DNA from: Thermofilum pendens Hrk 5
Lineage (GTDB): Archaea > Thermoproteota > Thermoprotei > Thermofilales > Thermofilaceae
Direction of reading: 5' to 3'
DNA length: 32,000 nt
Assembly (NCBI RefSeq): GCF_000015225.1
Contig: NC_008698.1
Span: 1,470,001-1,502,000 of the forward strand
Shown here: positions 6,805 through 24,857 of the stretch, in pieces
How the letters are laid out: each line of letters starts with the position of its first letter
Position numbering within the stretch: position 1 is the first letter of the stretch
Position numbers and translations under genes: made by a program
Notes under the pieces: generated by a model
What the model was told of the DNA's origin: nothing
The model's database searches: none
What the model saw: the letters and a program-made list of their open reading frames with translations, nothing else

Positions 6805-6856
6805 AGTGTAGAGGCGGTAGGCTTAAAGGCTTGGTCGGAGCTTCTCTTCGGGCACT

Positions 6857-7588
6857 ATGACTCTCTTAGAGGCTTTGGACTTGCACGTCGAGGTGGGAGG
6901 CGCCGAGGTGCTGAGAGGGGTTAGCCTCGGCGTCGGCGAGGCCGAGGTGCACTTCCTGATGGGGCCCAACGCAGCTGGCAAGACTACCCTCCTGTCGGCG
7001 CTGGCGGGGCTTCCCAGGGTCCGCGTGGTCTCCGGAAGAGTCCTCTTGGACGGCGAGGACGTGACCGGTCTACCGGTGGTGGAGAGGGCTAGGAGGGGCG
7101 TGGCGCTGGCCTACCAGATCCCGCCGGAGCTCGTGGGGGTCCCCTTGAGGAGCCTCGCCAAGCTGGTTTCTGGGAGGTTCGGCACCGGGGCGTACGTGGA
7201 GGAGCTTTCACGCAGGCTACGACTGGAGCACCTGATGGGCAGGGACTCCTTCAGGGGTTTTAGCGGGGGCGAGCGGAAGAGGGCGGAGCTGTTCCTAGTC
7301 GCGTTGATGCGCCCCAGGCTCGCGTTGCTCGACGAGCCGGACAGCGGGGTGGACCTTGACAGCCTCTGGTTGATAGCGGATGCCCTGAGCTTCGTCTCGG
7401 AGGAGTTCGGCACGGCAATGATCGTGGTGACACACACCAGGGCTCTCATAGAGAAGGTTGGCGGCACGGCTGCACACGTCCTCTGCGATGGGAGGATAGT
7501 GTACAGCGGCGCCCCGGGGAGCGTGGCCGGGCTCGTAGAGGAGAGGGGCTTTAAGGGGCTGTGCGGTGAGGCTGATGGAGCGCGTTGA
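6857..7588 (+). CDS. sufC: Fe-S cluster assembly ATPase SufC
   Basis: Walker A GPNAAGKTT, signature FSGGERKR, Walker B LALLDEPDSGVD, H-loop VTHT. Length of about 243 aa and adjacency to a SufB/D gene. Confidence 0.92.
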   Translation: MTLLEALDLHVEVGGAEVLRGVSLGVGEAEVHFLMGPNAAGKTTLLSALAGLPRVRVVSGRVLLDGEDVTGLPVVERARRGVALAYQIPPELVGVPLRSLAKLVSGRFGTGAYVEELSRRLRLEHLMGRDSFRGFSGGERKRAELFLVALMRPRLALLDEPDSGVDLDSLWLIADALSFVSEEFGTAMIVVTHTRALIEKVGGTAAHVLCDGRIVYSGAPGSVAGLVEERGFKGLCGEADGAR

Positions 7589-12336: not shown

Positions 12337-12912
12337 GTGGCTACAGAGCTAAAGCGTTCAAGAAAAGTGCTGTCTACTACAGATATTGTCGCCATGGGTA
12401 TTGGAACGGCGCTCTACGCTGCCTTCAACGTTTTCTTCAACATTCTCCAGATACCTGGATCACAACTCGTCTCCGTGCGTCCCAGCGTAAGTATACCCAT
12501 GTTCTTCGGCCACGTATTCGGCCCAGTTGTAGGCTTTGTAGTGGGGTTTCTCGGAAACACGATAAGTGACGCTGTGAGCTGGGGAGGTTTCTGGTGGAAC
12601 TGGGACGTGGGCAACGGGCTCCTCGGACTGATATCCGGGCTGGCATCGTACATTATTAAGCGCGAAGAGCTACTAGAGAAGAAGGGGTTAATGGTAGCGT
12701 CGGTACTCGCAGTCGTAGGATCTATAGTCGGCATGGGCTTCGCGTCCTTTACTGACTACATTTTCGGGTATGGGATATCTACGATCGAAGAGGCAATATA
12801 CGCGTTGTTCCTACCAGCCGCTGTGACCGACGCCGTTAACGGCGCCATACTCACCCCTGTCTTGATCAAAGCTTATAGTGCGGCGGTAAAAGGCAGGTCT
12901 AGGAGAACCTAG
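12337..12912 (+). CDS. ECF transporter substrate-capture (S) component, module 1; specificity unknown
   Basis: 191 aa, about 6 TM segments, GTG start 30 nt downstream of AAGTTTAT (12303-12310). It sits immediately upstream of ecfT (1-nt gap). A small Gly/aromatic-rich integral membrane protein, typical of S components. Confidence 0.65.
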   Translation: MATELKRSRKVLSTTDIVAMGIGTALYAAFNVFFNILQIPGSQLVSVRPSVSIPMFFGHVFGPVVGFVVGFLGNTISDAVSWGGFWWNWDVGNGLLGLISGLASYIIKREELLEKKGLMVASVLAVVGSIVGMGFASFTDYIFGYGISTIEEAIYALFLPAAVTDAVNGAILTPVLIKAYSAAVKGRSRRT

Positions 12913-12913
12913 A

Positions 12914-13705
12914 ATGTCGAGCAGAATAGTTAGGTACATTGAAGGGAGTAGCATCGTACACAGACTGGATCCCAGGGTTAAACTATTTTTTGTTGGAAGC
13001 GTGGTTTTAGCGGCTTCGCTTTCCTACAACCTCCTTCTAGCGGTACTAACACTAGCATTAGGCCTATCGTTCTATCTTCTCGCAAGGCTTCCCTTCTCGA
13101 AAACGAAGAACACTTGGAAGTTCATACTGATCGTAGCCCTGGTTCTGTCTTTCCTGAACTATCTGTTCGTAGCTGTGCTCTACCATAGGCCGCGCGGAGA
13201 GCTATTAGAGGCATTTATGAGCGCGGAGCTCCTCTCCAGGTCTATCACTCCTGTACTCAAGCTTCTAGCGGTAGCAACAGTTACGGTCGCGTTCGTTTAC
13301 ACAACTCCTCCTCACCTTTACGCTCCTGCGCTAGGACAACTCGGGCTGAGCTACAGGGCCGCGTATGCCGTACATCTAGGTTTTAGGTACTTCCCTCAGT
13401 TCGTGGACGAGTTAAGGCGCACATTAGAAGCGCAGATGGCTAGGGGGTATAGGCCGCGGGGTGGGAAGAATCCTCTCGGCAGGATCTTAGCGGTAATCCC
13501 GTTGATAGTGCCCGTAACCGTGTCTGCAACGCTCTCCATCTACGATGTCTCCGATGCGATGGAGCTGAGGGGGTTCGGAGGGACAAAGTGCCATACGTGG
13601 TATAGAAAACTGTCCATGAAAACTCTGGACAAGGCTTTCGCTATACTTTCGGCTGTAATCTCGCTGGTATTCCTCGCTTTATACGTTCTTCGCCCCTTAC
13701 CATAG
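12914..13705 (+). CDS. ecfT: ECF transporter transmembrane (T) component EcfT/CbiQ family, module 1
   Basis: N-terminal VHRLDPRVKL motif and the coupling-helix motif AQMARGYRP (x-R-G). 263 aa with about 5-6 TM segments. Confidence 0.85.
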   Translation: MSSRIVRYIEGSSIVHRLDPRVKLFFVGSVVLAASLSYNLLLAVLTLALGLSFYLLARLPFSKTKNTWKFILIVALVLSFLNYLFVAVLYHRPRGELLEAFMSAELLSRSITPVLKLLAVATVTVAFVYTTPPHLYAPALGQLGLSYRAAYAVHLGFRYFPQFVDELRRTLEAQMARGYRPRGGKNPLGRILAVIPLIVPVTVSATLSIYDVSDAMELRGFGGTKCHTWYRKLSMKTLDKAFAILSAVISLVFLALYVLRPLP

Positions 13706-13985: not shown

Positions 13986-14654
13986 TTAAGGCATGCCCGT
14001 CAGCGCCAGGATTGGTGCCAGCAGGAGCGCCGGGAGCATGTTCCCCACGCGGATCCTCTTCAGCTTCAACAAATTGATGCCTACGCCTATTAGGAGCACT
14101 CCGCCTGCCGCGGTCAGCTCGTTCACCGACGCCTCTGGCAGGAGCGCCCCCGTCAGCGCTCCGAGCAACGCCAGGGATCCCTGGAAGGCCAGCACCAAGA
14201 CGGAGCTAAACACCACGCCTACACCCATAGCCGCGGCGTAGGCAACCGATGCGACGCCGTCCATGACGGACTTTGCCAGCAGTATGCTCGGGTCTCCCAA
14301 GCCGTCCCTGATAGACCCCACTACGGTCATTGGCCCCACGCAGAACGTCAGGAAGGCTGTGAGCATCCCGTCGACCACGCCCTGGGACCTCGTCCTCGAT
14401 ACTCTCTCCGAAAGCCTCTGAAGAGCTCCCTCCACGCCGAGGGCTTCGCCCACCAGGGAGCCGAGGAGCAACGAGACTATCATCGCCACGGGCTTTCTCG
14501 CTTGGAGCGCCATTTGAACCCCGATCGCCACTGTGAAAAGCCCAAGCACGTCGGCGACAAACGCTACTCTCTCGGCGTTCACGCTCTTCCTGAGGAGCAA
14601 ACCGACGAGGGACCCTGCCAGCACGGTCAGCGTGTTTACCAGGGTTCCGAGCAC
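13986..14654 (-). CDS. DUF554-family (YqgA/YdfK-like) membrane protein
   Basis: N-terminus MLGTLVNTLTVLAGSLVGLLLRK, and the 222-aa polytopic layout matches the DUF554 pattern (MiGtivN...iGsliG.llkk). GTG start. Confidence 0.8.
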   Translation of the reverse strand: MLGTLVNTLTVLAGSLVGLLLRKSVNAERVAFVADVLGLFTVAIGVQMALQARKPVAMIVSLLLGSLVGEALGVEGALQRLSERVSRTRSQGVVDGMLTAFLTFCVGPMTVVGSIRDGLGDPSILLAKSVMDGVASVAYAAAMGVGVVFSSVLVLAFQGSLALLGALTGALLPEASVNELTAAGGVLLIGVGINLLKLKRIRVGNMLPALLLAPILALTGMP

Positions 14655-14827: not shown

Positions 14828-14857
14828 TTAAACCCTCCTAGCAATACAAGGGTTTAA
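14828..14857. promoter_or_regulatory. Perfect 9-bp inverted repeat TTAAACCCT-N12-AGGGTTTAA; candidate operator overlapping TATA-like elements
   Basis: The arms are 14828-14836 and 14849-14857. The right arm ends 38 nt upstream of GTG 14895, and a GGTGA SD-like element sits at 14887-14891. Each arm contains a TTTAA TATA-like core. Confidence 0.4.
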
Positions 14858-14894: not shown

Positions 14895-15878
14895 GTGAAG
14901 GTGGAGGAGGGAGACTCATCTAGTAGTAAACTTTTAGCGCTCTCAACCCCCCTGCTCAAGCTCACATCTCTCAGGAAGCTTCTCAACCTTGACGGCGCCG
15001 CTGTCTACTTGAAGTACGAGGGCTACAACCCCACGGGTACGCACAAGGACAGGGCTGCCCTCGCGCACGTGGGAGAGGCCGTTCTCAACGGCTACGACAC
15101 GGTGACGGTCGGGACCTGCGGTAACTACGGCGTCGCGGTAGCGTACTACGCTAGGCTCGCGGGGCTTAGGGCGGTGATATTCGTCCCGAAGGGCTACAGC
15201 AACAGTAGGGTGCCGGAGATGAAGAGGTACGGGGCGCGTGTAGTGGAGGTGGAGGGGCCCTACGAGGACGCGGTCGCGGTAAGCGTGAGCTCCGCAAGGG
15301 CTAACGGGTGGTACGACGCGAACCCCGGTAGCGTGAACGACCACGTTAGCATAGAGGCTTACTCCCTCATAGCGAGGGAGATCGTGAGGCAGCTCGGAGA
15401 CGCCCCTGCCGTAGTGGCTGTACCCGTGGGGAACGGAACCACGCTCGTAGGGATATACCACGGCTTCTACAGGCTGTACAGAGCCGGGGAGACTACGAGG
15501 ATCCCGAGGATGGTCGCTGCCAGCACGTCCAACGCGAACCAGCTCGTCTACTCCTGGAGCAGGGGGTCGACGGAGCCCCTACCGGTCGAGGTCTCCGAGG
15601 TGCGCGAAACCCCGGTGAACGAGCCGCTCGTCGCGATTAGGTCGCTGAACGCCGAGGAGGCTCTGAGAGCTATATACGCGTCTAAGGGCGCGGCGTTCGG
15701 CTTCAGCGACTCCGAGATGGTCGAGATGTCGATACTCCTCAGGGCGTTCGAGGGGGTAAGCGCTCTACCCGCGTCGGCGTCCGCGCTCCTGGCTGTACGC
15801 GAGTACCTTAAGGCAAACGAGGTCGACGGCCCGGTAGTAGCGGTGATAACGGGGAGATGGAGGAGGGAGAAGCGGTAA
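14895..15878 (+). CDS. Fold-type II PLP-dependent enzyme (threonine synthase/cysteine synthase-like PALP family)
   Basis: PLP-lysine motif YNPTGTHKDRAA, Gly-loop VPVGNGTTLVG, 327 aa. Shorter than canonical archaeal ThrC, so the specific reaction is unknown. Confidence 0.85.
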   Translation: MKVEEGDSSSSKLLALSTPLLKLTSLRKLLNLDGAAVYLKYEGYNPTGTHKDRAALAHVGEAVLNGYDTVTVGTCGNYGVAVAYYARLAGLRAVIFVPKGYSNSRVPEMKRYGARVVEVEGPYEDAVAVSVSSARANGWYDANPGSVNDHVSIEAYSLIAREIVRQLGDAPAVVAVPVGNGTTLVGIYHGFYRLYRAGETTRIPRMVAASTSNANQLVYSWSRGSTEPLPVEVSEVRETPVNEPLVAIRSLNAEEALRAIYASKGAAFGFSDSEMVEMSILLRAFEGVSALPASASALLAVREYLKANEVDGPVVAVITGRWRREKR

Positions 15879-16918
15879 TACTGGCGGAGGGTCTCTACTC
15901 GACGACTGACGGCAAGACGGCGCACGGGCTCGTCAGGAAGAGCCTACGCTACAAGATAGTCGGGGTGATAGACAGCACCCTCGCTGGGAGGGATGCAGGC
16001 GAAGTGCTCGACGGGAAACCTCGCGGCATAAAGATATACTCCTCCCTCGAGGAGGCGTTGAAGGAGCACCCCGGGGTAAAGTTCCTCATAATCGGCGTGG
16101 CGACTCCTGGTGGCAGGCTCCCGCCGTCCTACAGGGAGGTGGTGAAGGAGGCGTTGAAGAGGGGGATAAGCGTGGTTTCTGGTTTACACGAGTTTCTCAG
16201 TGACGACCCGGAGCTCTCTAGGATAGCCAGGGAGACTGGCGCCGAAATAATAGACGTGAGGAAGATATACTACAACACCAGGAAGTTCTACACAGGGAAG
16301 ATAAAGGAGGTCAAAGCCCTCAAAGTGGTCGTGATAGGGACGGACTCGGCTGTCGGCAAGAGGACGGTTGCCCACATGGTGACCGACGAGCTCAACGCGA
16401 GGGGAATTAAAGCCGTCTTCGTCGGTACGGGGCAGACTGCCTGGATGCAGGGCGCCAAGTACGTCTTCGTGCTTGACAGCGTGATAAACGACTTCGTCCC
16501 CGGAGTACTGGAGGACGTCGTGTGGAGGGCGTACAGCGAGGAGAAGCCCAAGGTCATAGTCGTGCCGGGTCAGGGTAGCCTGCTTCACCCGGTGTTCCCG
16601 GGGAGCTACGAGATACTGAACCTGTTGAAACCCGAGGTCACCATCCTGCACCACGCGCCAGGTAGGAAGCACTTGGACGGGTTCCCCGAGTACCCGGTTC
16701 CACCCCTGGAGAAGTTCCTGAAGCTCGTCGAGATAATAACCGATAGGAGGGTCTTCGCGATCACTCTCAGCACCGAGGGGCTCTCGGAGCGGGAGGTGCT
16801 CGCCGAGAGGGAGAAGCTTGAGAAGGAGCTCGGGATCCCCGTCGTGGTCCCGATGATCGAGGGCGTCGGGAGGATTGTCGACGAGATAACCAGGAGGTTC
16901 CCGGAAGTGGTGGGCTAA
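15857..16918 (+). CDS. DUF1611-family protein (DgcN-like; CoA-binding-like N-domain plus P-loop-like C-domain)
   Basis: AVILAEG...GKTAHGLVR...VGVIDS..AGRDAGEVL...LIIGVATPGGRLP...VVSGLHEFLSDDPEL...VVIGTDSAVGKRT matches the DUF1611 pattern I recall. The ATG overlaps the upstream gene by 22 nt. Confidence 0.8.
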   Translation: MEEGEAVILAEGLYSTTDGKTAHGLVRKSLRYKIVGVIDSTLAGRDAGEVLDGKPRGIKIYSSLEEALKEHPGVKFLIIGVATPGGRLPPSYREVVKEALKRGISVVSGLHEFLSDDPELSRIARETGAEIIDVRKIYYNTRKFYTGKIKEVKALKVVVIGTDSAVGKRTVAHMVTDELNARGIKAVFVGTGQTAWMQGAKYVFVLDSVINDFVPGVLEDVVWRAYSEEKPKVIVVPGQGSLLHPVFPGSYEILNLLKPEVTILHHAPGRKHLDGFPEYPVPPLEKFLKLVEIITDRRVFAITLSTEGLSEREVLAEREKLEKELGIPVVVPMIEGVGRIVDEITRRFPEVVG

Positions 16919-16920
16919 GA

Positions 16921-18375
16921 GTGGACCTGAAGTGCTTTGACAAGATAACTGTCGGGCCAGTGAAGGTCAAGGGTAGGCGTACGAGCGTTAGGTACGTCTT
17001 GGAGTTCGACGGGTTGAGGAAGGAGTACGAGCTCGTGAACGTTTACCCAGAGGACCTCGACCCTAGGGTGCTCGAGGAGGCTTCCAGCATGGCCGGCATA
17101 GTGCCGGCGGTTAACTACGCACTGTTCGCAGACGAGATAAGGCTCGACGTGAAGCTTCACAGCCTGGACTTGAGGTTCTTCGAGGACATGGCGCGGGTAA
17201 CGGCAGGGGACATCTTCGTGAACAGAATCGTCGCGCGCACAGGGCTCATAAAGGAGGAGTACCTCCCCGACCCGGAGAGCGTGACGCCGGAGGACGCCGA
17301 GCCTCGGGCGACCGTTGTCGCCGAGAACGTGGACGACTCGACGTACCTGGAGGCCGAGCCGGACTACTCGAAGTGCGGCGTCATGTCGTCGGGGGGCAAG
17401 GAGAGCCTGTTCGCGTACGGACTCCTCAGGGAGGCCGGGTGCGAGGTCTACCCGTTCTTCCTCAACGAGGCCGGGAGGCACTGGTGGACGGCGCTCACGG
17501 CCTACAGGGAGCTGTCGAGGAGGGACCCCAACACCAGGAGGGTTTGGAGCAACGTGGACAGGCTGTTCGCGTTCATAGAGAAGAACATGAAGATAGTCGT
17601 CCCGAACTACTGGAGGAAGAACAGGGAGATATATCCCGTCAGGCTCTTCTGGTACGCTCACTACATACTCTCGTTCCTCCCCTTGGCGCTCAAGTACGGC
17701 GTGGGCAACATAGTCATGGGAAACGAGTTCGACGACCCCTCGGGGCTGACGTTCGAGTACAAGGGTATAAGGCACTACTACGCGACTTACGACCAGTCCC
17801 TAGACTTCGACGTCTACATGACGCGGTACTTCGAGGAGAGGGGGCTGGGCATCAAGCAGTGGTCGCCTCTAAGGCCGGTAACACCCATAACGATACTCAG
17901 GATACTCTTCGACAGGTACCCGGACCTCGCGCCGCTCGTAACGAGCTGCCACTCGACGCACGTAGAGAACGGGGTTGTGAAGCCCTGCGGTACCTGCTAC
18001 AAGTGCAACGGCGTCCTGCTCATGCTTCTCGCGGTCGGCGCGGACCCGAGGCTCCTGAGGTACGATGAGAGGCACGTCGAGACTCTCCCGGAGAGGCTGT
18101 CAAAGGGGCTTGTAAGGCTCGAGCCATCCCTGGTCAAGCACTCCCTCTACCTCGTCGCGAGCAGGGGGCTCTGGAGGCTTCCGGGCGCGGAGCCCGTCTG
18201 GCACGTCGAGATGATACACTTCGACGGCATAAACAGCACCCCGGACTTCATCCCGCACAGGGACCTGAGGCTGAGGGTGCTGAGTATCTACGAGAAGTAT
18301 ACGAGGGGGTACGCGAAGCTCGAGAACGGGCAGTGGGTCCAAGTAGACCCGGAGTCGATCCCCGGCCTCAGGTAG
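16921..18375 (+). CDS. PP-loop ATP-pyrophosphatase-like protein with a QueC-like C-x12-C-x2-C-x2-C cluster and an uncharacterised N-domain of about 150 aa
   Basis: PP-loop variant GVMSSGGKESL (SGGxDS with D replaced by E). Later motifs are GNEFDD and SCHSTHVENGVVKPCGTCYKCNG. GTG start 2 nt after the upstream stop. 484 aa. Confidence 0.75.
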   Translation: MDLKCFDKITVGPVKVKGRRTSVRYVLEFDGLRKEYELVNVYPEDLDPRVLEEASSMAGIVPAVNYALFADEIRLDVKLHSLDLRFFEDMARVTAGDIFVNRIVARTGLIKEEYLPDPESVTPEDAEPRATVVAENVDDSTYLEAEPDYSKCGVMSSGGKESLFAYGLLREAGCEVYPFFLNEAGRHWWTALTAYRELSRRDPNTRRVWSNVDRLFAFIEKNMKIVVPNYWRKNREIYPVRLFWYAHYILSFLPLALKYGVGNIVMGNEFDDPSGLTFEYKGIRHYYATYDQSLDFDVYMTRYFEERGLGIKQWSPLRPVTPITILRILFDRYPDLAPLVTSCHSTHVENGVVKPCGTCYKCNGVLLMLLAVGADPRLLRYDERHVETLPERLSKGLVRLEPSLVKHSLYLVASRGLWRLPGAEPVWHVEMIHFDGINSTPDFIPHRDLRLRVLSIYEKYTRGYAKLENGQWVQVDPESIPGLR

Positions 18376-18387
18376 CGGTGCACGGGC

Positions 18388-18900
18388 ATGCCGTTCACGC
18401 CGTTTCACCTGGGGCCTGCTCTCGCCGTGGGGCTTCCGCTCAGGGAGAGGATCCACGCCCCCACGTTCATACTGGCCAGCATCGCGGTGGACGTCGAGCC
18501 GCTAGTAGTGCTCGTGCTGGGGCTCGACTACCCCCTCCACGGCTACCTCCACACGTTCGCCGGCGCCGCGTTGCTGGGGCTGTGCCTAGGGCTCCTGATG
18601 CACGCGACGGAGAAGGTACTCGGGAACGCCTGGAAGAGAGCCCTGCTGGAAGGGTCGCGGAGCGTTGGCTTCGAGGGCTTCGCGGTGGCCGGGATCCTAG
18701 GGTGCACGGTTCACGTTCTGCTCGACTCGCCGCTGTACCCCGACATCAGGCCGCTCTACCCCTACGCCGCGAACCCTCTCTACGACCCCAGTTTAACCCC
18801 GGCCGTCTACCTGCTCTGCTCCGTGCTCCTCCTGGGAGGGCTGGCGTACTACCTATACCTCGCCCTGCAGCATCAGGCGAAGCAAGGGTTAGCCCGCTAG
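18388..18900 (+). CDS. Small polytopic membrane protein, membrane-bound metal-dependent hydrolase-like (DUF457/DUF4184-like)
   Basis: MPFTPFHLGPALAVG N-terminus, with conserved His/Asp in hydrophobic contexts (PLHGYLHTF, VHVLLDSP). ATG lies 12 nt after the upstream stop, with GGTG upstream. Confidence 0.5.
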   Translation: MPFTPFHLGPALAVGLPLRERIHAPTFILASIAVDVEPLVVLVLGLDYPLHGYLHTFAGAALLGLCLGLLMHATEKVLGNAWKRALLEGSRSVGFEGFAVAGILGCTVHVLLDSPLYPDIRPLYPYAANPLYDPSLTPAVYLLCSVLLLGGLAYYLYLALQHQAKQGLAR

Positions 18901-18978
18901 GTCTCTCGGCGGGTTTCTCCGAGCATCTGTGTTGGTTTAGTAGGTGGATCCCACGGGAAAGTAGGGCGCAAGGTATTT

Positions 18979-20625
18979 TTGCGTTCAGCCGTGGAGTTCC
19001 CGGTGGTCTTACGGGTGCCTGAAATAGAGGTCGAGGAGCTTTCGTTTACTTACGCCGGTAAAGGGGAGCCAGCGTTAAGGAACGTTAGCTTGGAAGTAGA
19101 CAAGGGCGAAGTGGTGCTTCTTGCCGGTAGGAGCGGGAGCGGGAAATCTACGCTTTTAAAGGCCATCAATGGGCTGATACCCCATAGGTACTCGGGAACT
19201 TATAAGGGAGCCGTCAGGGTAAGGGGGCTTACCGTAGCAGAAACTCCCGTCTACGAATTGTCGAGAATTGTAGGCACAGTTATGCAGGAGGTCTCGAAGC
19301 AACTATTTCTGCCAACAGTAGCGGATGACGTAGCGTTTGGCCCCTCCAACCTATGCATCGAGAGAGAGGAAATTGAGAGGAGGGTTGAAGAGGCGCTGAG
19401 TAGACTCGGCATACTGCACCTGAAGGATCGCGACGTGAACGAGCTGAGTGGCGGCGAGAAACAGAGAGTAGCCATAGCCGGCGTCTTAGCCATGAAGCCC
19501 GAAATAATACTCATGGATGAGCCTCTAGCCAATCTCGATAGCGAAGGTGTAGCCACGGTTCAAGAGGTGATAAAGAGTTTCCGCGAAGAGGGAAAAACAG
19601 TCGTAATAGCGGAACACAGAGTTGAGGAAGTTCTGGAGGTAGGGGTGGACCGGGTCTTCGTGATGAGAGAGGGAACCATAGTTAGGGAGGTGGAGAGAGT
19701 AGAGGAGCTCGCCAACTTTGCGGATGAACTGAAGGTTCCAGCAGAGGCTTACTTGCCCCCGGGCATCGTGGAGGCTCCACGCATCTCTCTGCCGCATCAC
19801 TCTCCGGGGGTAGTCGCCGTAGAGTTTAGGAATGTGAGCTTTAGCTACGAGGACAAGCCCGTACTCAAAGGGATAAACCTTGAGATACGCGAGGGGGAGA
19901 GAGTCGCGCTTCTCGGAAACAATGGCGCCGGTAAAAGCACAATGGCGAAGCTCATGCTCGGCTTGCTTAAACCTACGGAGGGTAGCGTCCTGGTCTACGG
20001 ACGGGATACCCACACGATGGAAGTCTATGAAGTCGCGCCGATGGTCGGGCTAGTGTTTCAGGATCCTTTCAGCATGCTATTCGCGGAGACCGTGCGAGAA
20101 GAAATAGCATTTGGGCCTAGAAATCTGGGAGTTCCGCCCTCCGAGATACCTGGGAGAGTGGAGGAGGCGGCGGAGAGGTGCTTTGTGAAGCACTTGCTCG
20201 ACTTCTCCCCCTTTGCGTCTAGCCATGGGGAGAAGAAGAGAATATGCGTTGCCTCAATACTATCTATGAAGCCAAGGATTCTGGTGCTGGACGAGCCTAC
20301 AGCGGGGCAGGACTACGCTACATATACTGCTTTCATGGAGTTCGTAGACTCCCTGGTAAACGCCGGCGTCATTAAAACACTTGTACTAATAACGCATGAC
20401 ACCGATCTCGCAGTGGAATACACAGACAGAACAATAGTGCTTGCTAACGGAGAGATAGTGGCAGACGGACCAACTAGGAAAGTGCTTTCAGACTCCTCTG
20501 TGCTTGCAAAGGGGAAGATTCGTGAGACAAGCCTTATTAGGCTAGGCAAAAGGCTCACCGGTGGAAACTACATCTTGTCGAGAAAAGAACTAGCTATGCT
20601 AGCACGTAGCAGGACGCATTCGTAG
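18979..20625 (+). CDS. Fused tandem ECF/CbiO-type ABC ATPase (A-A'), module 1
   Basis: Two NBDs. NBD1: GRSGSGKST / LSGGEKQR / IILMDEP. NBD2: GNNGAGKST / degenerate SSHGEKKR / ILVLDEP. The track start is TTG 18979; GTG 19015 (MPEIEVEELSFTY) aligns better with the paralog's N-terminus. Confidence 0.92.
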   Translation: MRSAVEFPVVLRVPEIEVEELSFTYAGKGEPALRNVSLEVDKGEVVLLAGRSGSGKSTLLKAINGLIPHRYSGTYKGAVRVRGLTVAETPVYELSRIVGTVMQEVSKQLFLPTVADDVAFGPSNLCIEREEIERRVEEALSRLGILHLKDRDVNELSGGEKQRVAIAGVLAMKPEIILMDEPLANLDSEGVATVQEVIKSFREEGKTVVIAEHRVEEVLEVGVDRVFVMREGTIVREVERVEELANFADELKVPAEAYLPPGIVEAPRISLPHHSPGVVAVEFRNVSFSYEDKPVLKGINLEIREGERVALLGNNGAGKSTMAKLMLGLLKPTEGSVLVYGRDTHTMEVYEVAPMVGLVFQDPFSMLFAETVREEIAFGPRNLGVPPSEIPGRVEEAAERCFVKHLLDFSPFASSHGEKKRICVASILSMKPRILVLDEPTAGQDYATYTAFMEFVDSLVNAGVIKTLVLITHDTDLAVEYTDRTIVLANGEIVADGPTRKVLSDSSVLAKGKIRETSLIRLGKRLTGGNYILSRKELAMLARSRTHS

Positions 20626-20704: not shown

Positions 20705-21658
20705 GTGGCGGCGCTGGGTAGGAGGGAGTGGGAGAGGCTTATCAAGGCTTTGGAGGAGGATAGGGAGCTTAGGTACGCGTTAGCCGGTTTGCTGGGCTTC
20801 AGGGATTTGCTCGAGAAGATGGACGCGACGCTGAGCGAGATAAAGGCTTTGAGGGAGGGACAGGAGCAACTGTGGAGAAAACAGGAGAAGCTGTGGGGAG
20901 AGGTGAGAAAGCTCTGGGAGGAAGTCAGAGCGCTGAGAGAGGATCAAAGAAAGCTGTGGGAAGAGGTAAAAGCTCTGAGGGAAAACCAGGAAAAGCTATG
21001 GGAGGAAGTGAAGTCCCTCAGAGAGGGGCAGGGAAAGCTATGGGAAGAAGTTAAGGCGCTGAGAGAGGATCAGAGGAGGCTGTGGGAGGAGGTGAAGGCT
21101 CTCAGGGAAAACCAGGAAAAATTATGGGAGGAAGTTAGAGCTTTAAGAGAGGACCAGGGGAAGCTGTGGGAAGGCCAGCAGAGGCTCTGGGAGGAGGTCA
21201 GGGCGCTGAGAGAAGGGCAGGAGAGGTTGCGTGGAGATGTGGATGGGCTACGCGCCAGTTTTAGGCAACTAGGCGAAGCTGTTGGCATGACACTCGAGTT
21301 CTACGCCGCCGCTTTCCTGGAGAGACTCCTGGCGGAGAAGGGGTACCCGGAGGCTAGGGTCAGGGTTGGCGTCAACCTAGCGTACAAAGGCGTACTAGTA
21401 GAGCTCGACCTCTTCTGCGAGGAGCCGTTGCTAGTGGGGGAAGTGACTACCTACCTGCGCTCCGCCGAGGATGCCGAGAGGGAGGCGGCTAAGCTTATGG
21501 AGAGAGTTAAGGTAGTCGAGGAGATCAGCGGGAGAAAAGTGGAGCTAGCAGTGCTGGCTGTAGCGAACCTCGGCAGAGAAGCCCTAGAGGTCCTGGAGAA
21601 GCTACATAGAGAGAAAGGAGTACTGGTCGTAACCGGTAGAGAACTAGAGTACCCCTAA
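20705..21658 (+). CDS. Coiled-coil repeat protein with a C-terminal alpha/beta domain resembling a PD-(D/E)xK-type nuclease fold
   Basis: aa 43-190 are about 10 units of LWEEV(K/R)ALRE(D/N/G)Q(R/E/G)K. The C-terminal part, LEFYAAAFLERLL...VLVELDLF..LLVGEVTTYL...VELAVLAV, has an E...D...E-x-(K replaced by T) layout. Confidence 0.8.
   Translation: MAALGRREWERLIKALEEDRELRYALAGLLGFRDLLEKMDATLSEIKALREGQEQLWRKQEKLWGEVRKLWEEVRALREDQRKLWEEVKALRENQEKLWEEVKSLREGQGKLWEEVKALREDQRRLWEEVKALRENQEKLWEEVRALREDQGKLWEGQQRLWEEVRALREGQERLRGDVDGLRASFRQLGEAVGMTLEFYAAAFLERLLAEKGYPEARVRVGVNLAYKGVLVELDLFCEEPLLVGEVTTYLRSAEDAEREAAKLMERVKVVEEISGRKVELAVLAVANLGREALEVLEKLHREKGVLVVTGRELEYP
20831..21268 (+). repeat. In-frame tandem repeat, 42-nt (14-aa) period with three 21-nt half units
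   Basis: Unit starts are at 20831, 20870, 20891, 20912, 20954, 20996, 21038, 21080, 21122, 21164, 21185 and 21227. The units differ mostly at synonymous or conservative positions. Confidence 0.9.
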
Positions 21659-21779: not shown

Positions 21780-22532
21780 TTGGGTACCACCCTTAAGGAA
21801 AGCTCGGGTGTAAAGAGAAGGATAAGCACGCAGGACGTTGCCCTCGTCGCCGTTATGGCTGCTCTCGCCAACGTCCTGGGCTTCTTCGCTATACCTGGCC
21901 CCTGGAACATACAGTTCAGCATGACCGGGATCCCGATACTTCTAGTAGCCTTCACGAGAGGCCCTCTGCTAGGAGCCCTTACAGGCCTCCTCGGCGGCTA
22001 CGTCCAGGCGGTGAAGTACGGGTGGGAGGGCTACGTTGTCTACACAGCCATACAGGGCGGCGTGGCAGGCTTCTTCGCGAAGAAGGTGAGACTGCTCAGG
22101 GTACTAGCGCCTCCATTCTTCTTCTTCGGCGGCTTCTTCTTAACGTGGTGGGTCGACCAGATGAGGTACGGCAAGGTGACCTTCGAGGACCTAGTATCAA
22201 TGACCCAGCGAGCCGTGGCGGCAGGTCCGGAGACCGGGCTGGCCGTGCCCTACGTCTCCATAGTCAGCGGCGTTGTGGCAGCGGCGGTAGCCGCCCTGCT
22301 GGTCCTAAGGTTCCCCGAGAATAGAAGGTTGTTGCTCACGCTGGCTGGCTGCATGGGGGCCATAGCCTACGTGCCCTACGATGCCTTCGCCCTCTACGTT
22401 GTGCAACAGTACCCGTGGATCCCCACGTGGTTCGTGCTGGCAAAGGACCTAGTCCAGGACTTCGTAGCGGCAGGCATCACGGCCAGCATACTCGAGAACA
22501 AGAGGGTTAGGAGGCTACTGGGGGGTGCGTAG
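21780..22532 (+). CDS. ECF transporter S component-like membrane protein, module 2; specificity unknown
   Basis: 250 aa, polytopic. The N-terminal ISTQDVALVAVMAALANVLGFFAIPGP..FSMTGIPILLVAF is typical of S components. TTG start. Its stop lies 2 nt before the ATPase start. Confidence 0.6.
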   Translation: MGTTLKESSGVKRRISTQDVALVAVMAALANVLGFFAIPGPWNIQFSMTGIPILLVAFTRGPLLGALTGLLGGYVQAVKYGWEGYVVYTAIQGGVAGFFAKKVRLLRVLAPPFFFFGGFFLTWWVDQMRYGKVTFEDLVSMTQRAVAAGPETGLAVPYVSIVSGVVAAAVAALLVLRFPENRRLLLTLAGCMGAIAYVPYDAFALYVVQQYPWIPTWFVLAKDLVQDFVAAGITASILENKRVRRLLGGA

Positions 22533-22534
22533 GA

Positions 22535-24067
22535 GTGGGCGAAGTAGTTAGAGTGGAAAACCTGTCTTTCTCTTACCCCAACGGGAGGAGGGCGCTGGAC
22601 TCCGTAAGCCTCTCGATAAGCCAAGGCGAGTTCGTCGCGGTTATGGGTCCTTCCCCGTCCGGCAAGTCCACGCTGGTCTACGCCCTCTCGGGCCTGATAC
22701 CGCACTGCGTAAAAGGCGAGATTAAGGGGTCAGTGAAGGTAGACGGGCTGGACACCAGGGAGCACCCCGTAGCAGAGCTGGCGAAGCGCGTCGGCGTAAT
22801 CCTGCAGGACCCGGAGGCTCAGCTACTCGAGCTCCGGGCGGTAGACGAGGTGGCATTACCCCTGGAGAACCTGGGGGTCCCGGCGGAGGAGATAAGGCTC
22901 AGGGTCGGCGAGGCGCTGGAGATGGTCGGGCTTAGGGGGTACGAGGAGAGGAGCCCCTCGGAGCTCTCCGGGGGCGAGAAGCAAAGGCTAGCCATAGCCT
23001 CCGTACTGGCCCTCAGGCCTAAGGTCATAGTGCTGGACGAGCCGACGGCGAACGTAGACCCTCCGGGAACACTGCAGGTCTACGAGACCTTGAAGAGGCT
23101 AAACGAGGAACACGGCCTGACGGTTATAGTCGTGGAGAACAAGGTGGAGGTAGCGCGGAGGTACGCTAAGAGGGCCGTGCTCATGGAGGGAGGGCGCGTG
23201 GTAGCCGACGGGGAGCCGAGCAAGGTGCTCCGCTCCGACGTTCTCGCTAGGCTGGGGCTGGACGCCCGCCCGGCGAGGCGCCCTGCGAAGGCGAGGGCGG
23301 GTAGCCGCGGGCGCGAGGTGGTCAGGTTCGAGGAAGTGAGCTTCAGGTATCCCGACGGGACTCTGGCCCTCGACCACGTGGATTTAACGCTTAGGGAGGG
23401 CGAGGTAGTCTTCCTGATGGGTAGGAACGGTAGCGGTAAAAGCACCCTGGTGAAGCACATGAACGGTCTTCTCAAGCCGAGCAGCGGGAGGGTGCTCGTC
23501 GACGGCTGCGACACTCGGACGTGCCCTACTTACAGGCTGTCGAGGATAGTGGGGCTGGTTTTCCAGAACCCGGCGCACCAGATAGTAGGGGAGAGCGTGT
23601 ACGACGAGATAGCGATGGGGCTCCGGCACCTGGGTGTAGGCGGGGACGATGTTAGGAGAGAGGTCGCGAGGATCGCCAGGGCGTTCGAGCTGGAAGACAA
23701 GCTGGACATGATACCGGAGGAGCTCAGCGTCGGTGAGCTCAAGAGGTTGATGATAGCGTCGATCGTAGCGATGAGGCCCAAGGTCCTAGTCCTCGACGAG
23801 CCTATGACGGGGATGACCAGTGCCCACTCGAGGAGGGTGCTGGACACCGTCCTGGGGATGCTGGGGGAAAGCTCTACAATCGTTGTCATAACACACGACC
23901 CGCGGTTGGCGTTCGAGTACGCCACGAGAGTCGTTGTGATGTCAAGGGGTAGGGTTGTGCAGGACGGCTCTCCAGAGGTGCTGGCCCGGTGCGAGCTTCT
24001 CTCAAGCTACCTGGAGGTGGTGCCGGATGTTCAGGTATGGCGGCATAACCGTGATCCACAGGCTTGA
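22535..24067 (+). CDS. Fused tandem ECF/CbiO-type ABC ATPase (A-A'), module 2
   Basis: NBD1: GPSPSGKST / LSGGEKQR / VIVLDEP. NBD2: GRNGSGKST / degenerate LSVGELKR / VLVLDEP. GTG start. Confidence 0.92.
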   Translation: MGEVVRVENLSFSYPNGRRALDSVSLSISQGEFVAVMGPSPSGKSTLVYALSGLIPHCVKGEIKGSVKVDGLDTREHPVAELAKRVGVILQDPEAQLLELRAVDEVALPLENLGVPAEEIRLRVGEALEMVGLRGYEERSPSELSGGEKQRLAIASVLALRPKVIVLDEPTANVDPPGTLQVYETLKRLNEEHGLTVIVVENKVEVARRYAKRAVLMEGGRVVADGEPSKVLRSDVLARLGLDARPARRPAKARAGSRGREVVRFEEVSFRYPDGTLALDHVDLTLREGEVVFLMGRNGSGKSTLVKHMNGLLKPSSGRVLVDGCDTRTCPTYRLSRIVGLVFQNPAHQIVGESVYDEIAMGLRHLGVGGDDVRREVARIARAFELEDKLDMIPEELSVGELKRLMIASIVAMRPKVLVLDEPMTGMTSAHSRRVLDTVLGMLGESSTIVVITHDPRLAFEYATRVVVMSRGRVVQDGSPEVLARCELLSSYLEVVPDVQVWRHNRDPQA

Positions 24068-24857
24068 CCCTAGAGCGAAGATTGTGTGGCTAACCTCGCT
24101 GATGGTGATTGCCCTGATAGTGATCGACCCGCTATACCTGCTACCCCCGCTAGCCTTCGCGGTAGCATTCCTCCTGCTGTCTAGGGTATACGAGCTTAAG
24201 GAGTTCCACTCGAAGTGGATAATGTCGACCCTCCTCGGGAGCACGCTACTACTAGTGCTCTTCAACGGCCTCTTCGCCGCAGTTGAGGTGAAAAAGGGCA
24301 CCGTGCTGTTCTACATCAGCTTCCTCGGGTTGAAGTACCCGGTAACCGTCGAGGGCTTCTACCTAGGGGTGGGAGCCGCGCTGAGGCTACTAGTGATAAT
24401 GCTCAGCTTTCTAACCGTAGCCTTCACCACGTACCCAAGAGACCTGGCGAACTCCCTGGAGAAGGTGGGGTTACCCTACGAACTGACCTTTACGGTAGCC
24501 CTAACCTTCAGGTTCATACCGTTCCTCGAAGAGGAGGCGAGGAGGATAGCCGACGCTCTCAAGTCCAGGGGCTACAGGGGGTTCGAGGAGGGAGGCTTCC
24601 TCGAGAGGCTTAGGGCTTACTCCACACTGTTCACCGTTCTCATCGTTAACAGCCTGAGCCTCGTTAGAAGGGTTGGAATGGTCTTGGAGGCCAGGTGCTT
24701 CGGCGCGTCGCCCAGGAGGAGCAGCCTGAGGGAGTACAGGTTCAGGAGGGAGGACTACCTGGTCGTAGCATCCTCCCTCCTGCTCCTAGCGTTGTACATA
24801 GTCCTCAGGTACTGCTACGGGCTGGGGTGGCTCGAGTATGCGCACGGCTACGTCTGA
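24027..24857 (+). CDS. ecfT: ECF transporter T component (EcfT/CbiQ family), module 2
   Basis: The internal ATG 24027 gives MFRYGGITVIHRLDPRAKIVWL, parallel to module 1's ..IVHRLDPRVKL. The coupling motif is ALKSRGYRG. The track's 23955 start would add a non-hydrophobic 24-aa extension lying inside the ATPase gene. Confidence 0.85.
   Translation: MFRYGGITVIHRLDPRAKIVWLTSLMVIALIVIDPLYLLPPLAFAVAFLLLSRVYELKEFHSKWIMSTLLGSTLLLVLFNGLFAAVEVKKGTVLFYISFLGLKYPVTVEGFYLGVGAALRLLVIMLSFLTVAFTTYPRDLANSLEKVGLPYELTFTVALTFRFIPFLEEEARRIADALKSRGYRGFEEGGFLERLRAYSTLFTVLIVNSLSLVRRVGMVLEARCFGASPRRSSLREYRFRREDYLVVASSLLLLALYIVLRYCYGLGWLEYAHGYV

Follow-up and report, generated by a model that had tools for sequence, protein, structure and literature searches.

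Organization of the locus

The window analysed here is a 32,000-nucleotide stretch of the Thermofilum pendens Hrk 5 genome (NC_008698.1, positions 1,470,001 to 1,502,000). It contains four tightly spaced genes, g1 to g4 (Table 1). In the open reading frame list, g1 and g2 overlap by 22 nt, g2 and g3 are separated by 2 nt, and g3 and g4 by 12 nt. These coordinates bear out the reading frames and the spacing (-22, +2 and +12 nt) given in the first-pass annotation. A DUF554 gene lies between the ECF T gene and g1 on the opposite strand, divergent from g1–g4, and the gene for the fused A-A' ATPase starts 78 nt past g4.

Table 1. Coordinates of genes and other features at the locus, numbered from the first letter of the window.
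Feature	Position	Strand	Basis
ECF S component gene	12337-12912	+	Pfam ECF-ribofla_trS; NCBIfam PRK13661
ECF T component gene	12914-13705	+	Pfam CbiQ
DUF554 membrane protein	13986-14654	-	Pfam DUF554 E 2.8e-68
Inverted repeat TTAAACCCT-N12-AGGGTTTAA	14828-14857	.	9-nt complementary arms
g1, ThrC-like PLP enzyme (327 aa)	14895-15878	+	Pfam PALP E 3e-61; NCBIfam PRK06381
g2, DUF1611 protein (353 aa)	15857-16918	+	Pfam DUF1611_N + DUF1611; Foldseek 2obn, 2g0t, 7xrj
g3, PP-loop/Cys4 ATP pyrophosphatase (484 aa)	16921-18375	+	Predicted structure; Foldseek; NCBIfam MurL
g4, DUF457/YdjM-type membrane protein (170 aa)	18388-18900	+	Weak Pfam YdjM; homolog names
Fused A-A' ECF ATPase	18979-20625	+	Two ABC_tran domains; ECF_ATPase models

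The inverted repeat previously noted ahead of g1–g4 is present. Its 9-nt arms, TTAAACCCT and AGGGTTTAA, are perfectly complementary and lie 37 nt ahead of the g1 start. In the form TTAAAC-N18-GTTTAA, the repeat occurs once in the window and is matched in none of 100 shuffles; a second Thermofilum species (L084/L085) has it with identical spacing 5' of its PALP gene. The repeat overlaps a TATA-like element and may be an operator of the module.

Conservation of the g1–g2–g3 module

Scanning one genome per species yields at least 561 confirmed relatives of g3. Gene neighbourhoods are described for the best-scoring 80 of these, a set in which the syntenic clade may be over-represented. A DUF1611 gene lies immediately 5' of the g3 homolog on the same strand in 71 of these 80 best-scoring loci, and in 58 of the 80 a PALP gene precedes it in the T. 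pendens order. The median distance is 4 nt from the DUF1611 stop to the g3 start (n = 69 loci) and 24 nt from the PALP stop to the DUF1611 start (n = 55 loci). The 80 loci cover at least six archaeal and at least five bacterial lineages; host groups include the Thermofilaceae, Thermococcus, Nitrososphaerales, Thermoplasmatota, Bathyarchaeia and several bacterial phyla.

One protein (P0135) is a single polypeptide made up of DUF1611_N, DUF1611_C and g3. Fusions of g3 to a creatininase domain are found in at least six divergent representatives and in loci L077, L078, L082 and L083, and a g3–methyltransferase fusion is also present. The fusions on either side of g3 therefore support a chain of DUF1611, g3 and amidohydrolase. 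Gene order, tight coupling and fusions are observed directly for the module, as are the folds and homologies of its proteins. The neighbourhood of the PLP, DUF1611 and PP-loop genes is conserved in order across very distant lineages, and together with the DUF1611–g3 fusion this supports the earlier view of the triad as an uncharacterised, co-transcribed unit. A literature search found no paper on this module.

The functional unit is g1–g2–g3, neither the four-gene operon nor the ECF locus. Of the four-gene operon originally described, g1–g3 stand as a conserved unit and g4 falls outside it as a local passenger, although it is probably co-transcribed with g1–g3 in T. pendens. No g4 homolog lies 3' of g3 in the 80 best-scoring loci. 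The DUF457 family of g4 is widespread in archaea, and its copies in other Thermofilaceae are in unrelated contexts. The g4 protein has a weak match to Pfam YdjM, under the cut-off (E 7.8e-4); its 866 homologs, many with PF04307, are named 'membrane-bound metal-dependent hydrolase YbcI (DUF457)'. A divergent DUF554 gene, whose product may be a transporter, is also next to the module in Infirmifilum uzonense and in Thermofilum sp., and is not found beside it in the remaining loci of the 80, outside the Thermofilaceae.

Features of the encoded proteins

The g1 protein exceeds the cut-off of NCBIfam PRK06381 'threonine synthase' (480 bits, cut-off 266), and its nearest solved structure is ThrC of T. 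thermophilus (118 bits). The PALP match bears out its motif-level assignment as a fold-type II PLP enzyme. It shares with ThrC this fold type and the aligned Schiff-base lysine (K51), and its nearest structures are short ThrCs. Unlike ThrC, g1 belongs to a separate clade that is always linked to DUF1611 and g3, and has a T-C-G-N-Y loop (T-C-G-N-Y/F in 58 of 58 orthologs) where the substrate loop of ThrC is S-T-G-N-T. The T. thermophilus positions T88, N154 and R160, which we take to be phosphate ligands of ThrC, are not kept in g1 in the alignment. A role for g1 in threonine biosynthesis is disfavoured because the Thermofilaceae have lost most biosynthetic pathways (PMC4673724).

The g2 protein consists of a CoA-binding-like Rossmann domain and a DTBS-like P-loop domain (GTDSAVGKRT). 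Its predicted structure (pLDDT 94.9) matches 2obn (TM 0.88), 2g0t and 7xrj, 'N-acetyltransferase DgcN' (TM about 0.7), in Foldseek. On the basis of this model, g2 is a predicted paralog of the D-glutamate N-acetyltransferase DgcN with the DgcN fold, which agrees with its motif-level description as a DgcN-like DUF1611 protein. The P-loop could also serve an ATP-dependent ligation as an alternative to acyl transfer.

D-acidic amino acids can be racemised irreversibly by a route of which dgcN is described as the key gene (PMC12363236). The module resembles the DgcN–DgcA pathway of D-glutamate catabolism in marine Proteobacteria and haloarchaea in having a DUF1611 protein with the DgcN fold, apparently coupled to a C-alpha-inverting enzyme acting on the N-acylated product, with deacylation next. 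An enolase-superfamily neighbour is also present in 21 of the 80 best-scoring module loci. The module differs in that g2 is only a paralog of DgcN (175 bits against the DgcN model, cut-off 480), the invariant partner is the PP-loop ATPase g3 instead of DgcA, and a ThrC-like PLP enzyme is added. Its enolase neighbour is dipeptide-epimerase-like, with an invariant ADLDS motif and the AEE model scoring above the DgcA model. No DgcR regulator is seen with the module.

The g3 protein contains an N-terminal domain, a QueC-fold core with the PP-loop S157-G-G-K-E-S162, a Cys4 zinc ribbon with invariant C343, C356, C359 and C362, and a C-terminal domain. The top Foldseek matches of its predicted structure (pLDDT 95.7) are Cap9, QatC and QueC, and on this model it can be confidently assigned as a PP-loop ATPase of the QueC/Cap9/QatC fold with a Cys4 zinc site. 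All three have the core fold, SGGxxS PP-loop and zinc site in common with g3, and its domain layout matches that of QatC. Unlike these enzymes, g3 has no Pfam QueC or PADLOC QatC/Cap9 match and no 7-deazaguanine or defence context, and has its own invariant motifs NESGxHW, VWSNVDR, GNEFDD and YDQS. PP-loop enzymes AMPylate a carboxyl or keto oxygen (PMC13376578).

No Pfam family, QueC included, matches g3. NCBIfam MurL is the sole recurrent model match of the g3 family (41 of 91 members), with the best bacterial members at E 1.6e-7 and E 2e-5. The T. pendens protein itself scores only 15.5 bits, far under the MurL cut-off of 700. Residues 256–380 of g3 are colinear with positions 224–349 of the 447 in MurL. 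Intermediate families of about 450 aa match the g3 profile at 1e-19 to 1e-35 and match MurL at up to E 7e-10 over nearly full length; they share the motifs SxGK[DE]S, GNExD, DQS, SC and CxxCxKC. By these sequence comparisons, MurL is the only curated relative of g3, and apparently a distant one; any epimerase activity of g3 is a prediction. The PP-loop and Cys4 motifs of an adenylating enzyme recognised in the first-pass annotation hold, and its likeness to QueC and asparagine synthase is refined by the relationship to MurL. MurL requires ATP and Mg, releases AMP and works unidirectionally from L to D (PMC5808125; PMC8788868), acting on the C-terminus of a peptide to epimerise the C-terminal glutamate (PMC5808125).

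Recurrent neighbours of the module

A GNAT acetyltransferase gene is near the module in at least 54 of the 80 best-scoring loci. Its product scores 81 bits against the rimI model (cut-off 86) and could be a housekeeping protein. The enolase-superfamily protein (21 of 80 loci) has L-Ala-D/L-Glu epimerase as its best match (243 bits), and an M14-like peptidase with HxxE...H...E is encoded in 17 of 80. These three neighbours point to D-amino-acid or peptide metabolism. Many loci carry a GNAT besides g2 and an enolase-type epimerase besides g3, which look redundant with the N-acylation and epimerase roles given to g2 and g3 below.

MpaA and YcjG form a murein-peptide recycling pair in E. coli. Similarly, the M14 peptidase gene adjoins the L-Ala-D/L-Glu-epimerase-like gene beside the module in 17–21 loci. 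In contrast to that pair, the M14-like protein of the archaea carries a long additional region at its C-terminus and matches Pfam only weakly, and no such pair is present in the T. pendens window.

Proposed pathway

We tentatively propose that an N-acylated, ATP-activated intermediate is the route by which the module converts its substrate, either a free amino acid or the residue at the C-terminus of a short peptide. The DgcN-like g2 would N-acylate the amino group, probably with acetyl-CoA. The g3 enzyme would then adenylate the alpha-carboxylate of the N-acyl amino acid, converting ATP to AMP and PPi, and this activation would drive epimerisation or amidation. Deacylation would fall to an amidohydrolase, which in bacteria would be the creatininase domain of the g3 fusions and in many archaea the M14-like enzyme encoded nearby. 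Finally, g1 would supply or consume the amino acid by beta/gamma chemistry. We infer the substrate, the direction, the order of the steps and epimerisation itself. Counting against the proposal are the role of g1, which is without a mechanistic account, and T. pendens, where neither a deacylase nor a GNAT is encoded adjacent to the module.

With low confidence, the pathway may be a variant of DgcN/DgcA and MurD2/MurL logic. As in MurD2/MurL, one enzyme would make an N-acyl amino acid and a second, ATP-dependent and AMP-forming, would then act on the alpha-carboxylate of this product. In contrast to that system, the partner of g3 is a DUF1611 protein and no Mur ligase, and the hosts are mostly archaea without murein.

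Alternative explanations

The module could instead encode a biosynthetic amide ligase, a possibility that we consider rather unlikely. A QueC/Cap9-like g3 would adenylate a carboxylate for attack by an amine. Ammonia or another amine would thereby be linked to an N-acyl amino acid from g1 and g2, giving a small exported metabolite (such as a compatible solute, signal or antimetabolite). The solved structural neighbours of g3 in Foldseek are all amide-forming enzymes and none are epimerases, but MurL, the one curated relative by sequence, is an epimerase. In several lineages the module is flanked by transporters from exporter-rich families (EamA in L012–L017, MFS in Thermococcus); the other neighbours, however, are catabolic in type (dipeptide epimerase and M14 peptidase), and the hosts are heterotrophs that live by scavenging and have reduced biosynthesis. 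The methyltransferase fusion and the GNATs, common in natural-product tailoring, are in keeping with amide synthesis, whereas the recurrent fusion partner of g3, the creatininase amidohydrolase, fits it poorly. It is less probable still that g3 resembles Cap9 and QatC in function, coupling a partner protein or peptide, at its N-terminus, to an activated carboxylate, or acting on a peptide C-terminus, with the RimI-like GNAT and the M14 carboxypeptidase processing the same termini. The full QatC layout of g3 (N-terminal domain, PP-loop at ~157, Cys4 at ~343–362, C-terminal extension), the GNAT score close to the rimI cut-off and the peptide C-terminus as MurL substrate (PMC5808125) are consistent with this. 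Against it, none of the PADLOC defence models match g1–g4, the enolase neighbour has dipeptide-epimerase features, and the module has small-molecule-type enzymes as partners and no conserved partner-protein candidate such as QatB or CdnD.

The position of g1–g4 between the S/T and A-A' genes in T. pendens, with the A-A' gene so close, underlies the earlier suggestion that the surrounding vitamin-type importer takes up a precursor which the pathway then processes or completes. This suggestion has no support because the ECF link is T. pendens-specific and the S component looks riboflavin-type by its match to NCBIfam PRK13661 (99.6 bits, barely passing the cut-off of 99); we regard it as very improbable. 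No ECF S or T gene is near the module in any of the 80 best-scoring loci, ECF genes are absent beside the triad in I. uzonense, another Thermofilum species and Thermococcus, and ABC-ATPase matches in other module loci occur at scattered, non-syntenic positions. Another complete ECF system follows after 1 kb, so the region is transporter-rich, and the ECF genes beside the module are local passengers. It is hardly credible that housekeeping genes (a true threonine synthase, a generic DUF1611 protein and a QueC-type 7-deazaguanine enzyme) are adjacent by chance. The NCBIfam label of g1 and the JGI label '7-cyano-7-deazaguanine synthase' of some g3 homologs would fit, but order and tight spacing are kept across phyla, fusions are present, and the hosts have lost most biosynthetic pathways (PMC4673724). 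Moreover, the ThrC loop is replaced in all 58 g1 orthologs, g3 has no Pfam QueC match, and no deazaguanine-pathway family is found among the annotated recurrent neighbour families.

If the proposed N-acylation and ATP-dependent activation pathway is correct, the module would let peptide-fermenting archaea salvage or convert D-/L-amino acids, probably acidic ones (e.g. Glu).

Conservation of the gene module

The ThrC-like PLP (PALP) gene (g1), the DUF1611 gene (g2) and the PP-loop/Cys4 gene (g3) of Thermofilum pendens form a conserved module. The products of g2, g3 and the fourth gene of the operon (g4) show 100% identity to proteins of T. pendens. The g3 family alignment was searched against one genome per prokaryotic species. 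This gave at least 561 confirmed relatives, and the 80 best-scoring loci were kept. Neighbours at these loci were detected by tblastn with T. pendens queries and by ORF clustering. In 71 of the 80 best-scoring loci, g3 is immediately preceded on its own strand by a DUF1611 gene. In 58 of the 80, a g1-type PALP gene in turn precedes DUF1611, and the order g1-g2-g3 is kept throughout. The median projected intergenic distances in this set are 4 nt (DUF1611-g3) and 24 nt (PALP-DUF1611). The first-pass annotation named a lack of conserved neighbourhood in related genomes as grounds for dropping its proposal; the triad clearly does recur as neighbours.

The archaeal loci come from Thermofilaceae, Thermococcus, Nitrososphaerales/Conexivisphaera, Desulfurococcales, Bathyarchaeia and Methanomassiliicoccales, and the Thermoplasmatota contribute a large number. 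The bacterial loci are found in Myxococcales, Deltaproteobacteria, Lysobacterales, Caldisericales, Eubacteriales and Gemmatimonadota. The g3 family is modest in size. An exhaustive profile search, clustered at 50% identity, returned 771 clusters at E<=1e-3 and 84 at E<=1e-30.

The g4 gene and the ECF importer genes that flank it are not conserved partners of the module. Both had been proposed to belong with it, g4 as a pathway member and the importer as the source of a precursor. Both are absent beside the triad in Infirmifilum uzonense, in a second Thermofilum species and in Thermococcus, and no match to an ECF S or T gene was found near the module in the 80 loci. Homologs of g4 elsewhere in Thermofilaceae occur in unrelated gene contexts. 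The g4 protein itself scores below the cut-off of PF04307 (19.4 bits, cut-off 29); homologs at 50-60% identity carry PF04307, and g4 homologs bear the JGI name 'YbcI (DUF457)'. The T. pendens ECF S component is barely above the cut-off of a riboflavin-type NCBIfam model.

Organisation of the T. pendens locus

The four ORFs are co-directional. As first described, g1 and g2 overlap by 22 nt, 2 nt separate g2 from g3, and 12 nt separate g3 from g4. Their domain assignments also stand, with support from Pfam, NCBIfam and homolog matches. An overlapping ORF was considered as an alternative to g4 and was dropped, as g4 has hundreds of homologs.

Features of the T. pendens locus (window coordinates)
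Feature	Position	Strand	Description
ECF S-T gene pair	12337-13705	+	5' of the operon
DUF554 gene	13986-14654	-	membrane protein; divergent, between the T gene and the operon
Inverted repeat	14828-14857		perfect, 9-nt arms; 37 nt 5' of g1
g1	14895-15878	+	ORF call; PALP-family PLP enzyme, closest to short threonine synthases
g2	15857-16918	+	ORF call; DUF1611_N + DUF1611
g3	16921-18375	+	ORF call; no Pfam family; PP-loop and four invariant cysteines
g4	18388-18900	+	ORF call; DUF457/YdjM-type membrane protein
Overlapping ORF	18333-19022		rejected alternative to g4
A-A' ATPase gene	18979-20625	+	fused; 3' of the operon
Coiled-coil gene	20705-21658	+	317 aa; between the two ECF systems
Tandem repeat	20905-21171		about 6.4 copies of a 42-nt unit, within the coiled-coil gene
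Second ECF importer	21780-24857	+	complete
Second ECF S gene	21780-22532	+
Second A-A' ATPase gene	22535-24067	+	fused
Second ECF T gene	23955-24857	+

The inverted repeat noted earlier upstream of the operon has perfect arms and is also present in a second Thermofilum species. The core TTAAAC-N18-GTTTAA occurs once in the window and was matched in 0 of 100 shuffles. It is kept in sequence, spacing and position 5' of the PALP gene in the second Thermofilum species (L084/L085, 4907-4936). Because it is unique in the window, absent from shuffles and recurs in this species, it is probably a genuine cis element. I. uzonense has only a version with a shorter spacer, TTAAAC-N8-GTTTAA. There is no obvious regulator gene near the palindrome, and an Rfam scan of the window found no known RNA.

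In each of the three Thermofilaceae loci (the window; L081, 5067-5732; L084, 4073-4741), a DUF554 gene stands divergently beside the module; it does so in no other locus. The protein may be a lineage-specific transporter of the pathway's substrate or product.

The region is rich in transporters, with CitMHS, MFS and a MalK-type ABC ATPase besides the two ECF systems. The repeat unit of the coiled-coil protein is 14 aa long (KLWEEVKALRE[DN]Q[ER]), and its C-terminal part is non-repetitive. The PADLOC match of this protein to 'C3a181 diadenylate cyclase' (E 3.7e-17) is probably due to the coiled coil.

Gene fusions and recurrent neighbours

Two members of the module, DUF1611 and g3, are also found on a single chain, and g3 is fused to other domains. 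Protein P0135 (855 aa) joins DUF1611_N, DUF1611_C and g3. A g3::creatininase fusion is present in at least six divergent representatives, and a g3::SAM-methyltransferase fusion in one. In Gemmatimonadota, Deltaproteobacteria and Lysobacterales, the operon reads PALP - DUF1611 - g3::creatininase - MR_MLE, with overlapping gene boundaries.

In archaea, a GNAT acetyltransferase of about 157 aa lies directly 3' of g3; the two genes converge in 43 loci and run in the same direction in at least 11. Four loci (L001, L024, L036 and L042) contain g3 and GNAT only. An M14-like metallopeptidase gene and an enolase-superfamily gene form an adjacent pair in about one fifth of the loci. The peptidase carries HxxE, H and E motifs. 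The best curated match of the enolase-superfamily protein is L-Ala-D/L-Glu epimerase. This protein has an invariant ADLDS motif, the dipeptide-ammonium-binding signature of dipeptide epimerases.

Other neighbours are restricted to particular clades. MoeA, KsgA, Pus10, DUF655 and HAD were judged incidental housekeeping neighbours in clades without the PALP gene. Deoxyhypusine synthase, Cu-ATPase, TP-methylase and PaaK-like genes are clade-specific and were likewise judged incidental. In two Bathyarchaeota loci (L049 and L056), a second PALP paralog adjoins the MR_MLE gene 3' of the module, in the order PALP-DUF1611-g3, convergent GNAT, deoxyhypusine synthase, PALP, MR_MLE. In a single instance (L001, a Thermofilaceae MAG), an Asparaginase_2 gene of the isoaspartyl-peptidase type is divergent upstream (6620-7555, minus strand).

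The PP-loop protein and its relationship to MurL

The g3 protein contains the PP-loop SGGKES at residues 157-162 and the invariant cysteines C343, C356, C359 and C362, which form a Cys4 zinc site. Its sequence has no significant match among solved structures. With the structure model (pLDDT 95.7), the best solved neighbours in Foldseek are Cap9, QatC and QueC, and the matches include the QueC-type structures 3bl5 and 2pg3. QueC shares the PP-loop (SGGxDS type), the Cys4 zinc site and the fold with g3. There is no match to Pfam QueC at E<=0.01, and no deazaguanine-pathway family is among the annotated neighbour families of g3 loci. The layout of QatC is the same as that of g3, with an N-terminal domain, a PP-loop near 157, Cys4 near 343-362 and a C-terminal extension (PMC13376578). 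Enzymes of the QueC/Cap9/QatC family AMPylate a carboxyl or keto oxygen, which is then attacked by a nucleophile (PMC13376578). The g3 module is congruent with QueC, QatC or Cap9 only as far as the common fold goes.

MurL, the ATP-dependent, AMP-forming L-to-D epimerase, is the sole curated family matched by g3 relatives (41 of 91 members); no other family recurs. The evidence for this relationship comes from the NCBIfam MurL model and from families that bridge the two. The g3 protein of T. pendens is far below the MurL equivalog cut-off (15.5 bits, cut-off 700), bacterial g3 relatives match the model at E 1.6e-7 and 2e-5, and g3 residues 256-380 are colinear with MurL 224-349 of 447. Six bridging proteins of about 450 aa (P0195, P0215, P0226, P0233, P0254 and P0264), from uncharacterised families, match the g3 profile over most of its length (1e-19 to 1e-35). 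Their matches to MurL range from 1e-6 to 7e-10, and one of these is nearly full length. The bridging proteins and g3 have SxGK[DE]S, GNExD, DQS, SC and CxxCxKC in common. By these sequence comparisons, g3 is homologous to MurL at the superfamily level, and a larger MurL-like superfamily of QueC-fold enzymes is suggested. The gene contexts differ: MurL is partnered with MurD2 in a peptidoglycan context, whereas g3 is partnered with DUF1611 and its hosts are mostly archaea. MurL was described by its authors as lacking known domains, and alpha-carboxylate adenylation was proposed (PMC5808125; PMC8788868).

The DUF1611 protein

The model of g2 (pLDDT 94.9) superposes on the DUF1611 structures 2obn (TM 0.88) and 2g0t in Foldseek. 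It also matches 7xrj, deposited as 'N-acetyltransferase DgcN', with E 6.5e-26 and a TM of about 0.7; DgcN has the same two-domain DUF1611 fold. Dethiobiotin synthetase, succinyl-CoA synthetase alpha and Mur ligases match more distantly, in keeping with a CoA-binding Rossmann domain joined to a DTBS-like P-loop domain (GTDSAVGKRT). Since g2 is below the cut-off of the NCBIfam DgcN equivalog (175 bits, cut-off 480), it is a DgcN paralog. The dgcN gene has been described as key to an irreversible route that racemises D-acidic amino acids (PMC12363236). The racemase that partners DgcN, DgcA, is absent from the window. An enolase-superfamily neighbour is present at 21 of the 80 loci; it reaches 151 bits with the DgcA model (cut-off 400), and its score with the L-Ala-D/L-Glu epimerase model is higher.

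The ThrC-like enzyme

The g1 protein matches PALP with E 3e-61. Its Schiff-base lysine, K51 in T-H-K-D-R, aligns with K61 of Thermus thermophilus ThrC (TtThrC). It scores 480 bits on PRK06381 (cut-off 266), a model that describes g1's own clade and is named by homology, and 107 bits on TIGR00260 thrC, under the cut-off of 167. The ThrC substrate loop S-T-G-N-T is replaced by T-C-G-N-Y/F in all 58 g1 orthologs. In TtThrC, the phosphate of O-phosphohomoserine is presumably bound by T88, N154, S155, R160 and N188. T88 aligns with Y/F78, a residue type that is invariant among the orthologs, and N154 aligns with the invariant G145. R160 aligns with S152 (Q/G in other orthologs) where the alignment is gapped, and N188 is kept as N180. 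On this list, g1 lacks several of the presumed ThrC phosphate ligands.

ThrC is found in a threonine-biosynthesis context; g1 genes instead always adjoin DUF1611 and g3. Of 125 biosynthetic COGs, only 20-30 are left in Thermofilaceae (PMC4673724), and for this reason a role of g1 in threonine biosynthesis is unlikely.

Proposed pathway and alternatives

The DgcN-DgcA and MurD2-MurL pairs are most alike in function to the module, which belongs to neither. The module has a new ThrC-like enzyme in addition. To our knowledge, DgcN is the one characterised DUF1611 enzyme, and it makes an N-acyl amino acid. MurL is the one characterised g3 relative that we know of; it inverts N-acylated glutamate after adenylation of the alpha-carboxylate. 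Taken together, the fusions put g3 between DUF1611 on one side and an amidohydrolase on the other.

The proposed route is one of protection, activation, inversion and deprotection. The g2 protein would N-acylate an amino acid. The g3 protein would then adenylate and epimerise the N-acyl amino acid, or possibly amidate it instead. A creatininase-type or M14-type hydrolase would take off the acyl group, and g1 would feed or drain the pathway through PLP chemistry. The dipeptide-epimerase and M14 neighbours and the peptide-fermenting lifestyle of the hosts suggest that D-amino acids, or peptides that contain them, are salvaged. The linkage, folds and homologies of the genes are observed; the substrate, the direction and epimerisation itself are what we infer. 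The sequence of N-acylation, adenylation-epimerisation and deacylation is a tentative reading, held at somewhat below an even chance. A more specific version is possible and more doubtful. It holds that g2-g3 carries out an ATP-driven, MurL-type, one-way stereoinversion of N-acylated amino acids or peptide C-termini. Such a system would work with the new ThrC-like PLP enzyme and would occur widely among peptide-fermenting archaea and in some bacteria.

The main alternative is a biosynthetic amide-ligase pathway, which we consider unlikely. Every solved structural neighbour of g3 is amide-forming, and in some lineages transporters of exporter type lie beside the module; the curated family that g3 relatives match is an epimerase. 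Modification of a protein or peptide terminus, as by Cap9 or QatC, would agree with the fold of g3 and is less likely. QatC/Cap9 defence proteins have QatABD, or CD-NTase and Cap10, as partners, whereas the partners of g3 are metabolic enzymes. A defence system of this type was rejected, as no PADLOC defence model matches g1-g4. Processing of a precursor imported by the ECF system, as first proposed, fits the arrangement in T. pendens and is also less likely, with the importer confined to that setting among the relatives compared. Chance adjacency of housekeeping genes is similarly less likely for the triad, with its constant gene order.

Implications

A literature search found no paper on the g1-g2-g3 module. 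The module joins three near-orphan families, namely DUF1611, the MurL-like PP-loop enzymes and a ThrC-like clade automatically named 'threonine synthase', which co-occur in hundreds of species. Two habitual misannotations, 'threonine synthase' and 'QueC', would be put right. With the fusions and the small gene set, three recombinant proteins would suffice for a direct test of the hypothesis.

If the chemistry is as proposed, the module would define a second means of inverting amino-acid stereocentres, one driven by ATP, and would account for the use of D-amino acids by amino-acid-auxotrophic, peptide-scavenging archaea. If the stereoinversion reading is true, this would be the first MurL-like system outside peptidoglycan synthesis, and MurL could be assigned the fold of the QueC-type PP-loop enzymes. 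Hyperthermophiles would then have a dedicated route for recovering D-amino acids, whether produced abiotically at high temperature or derived from bacterial cell walls.
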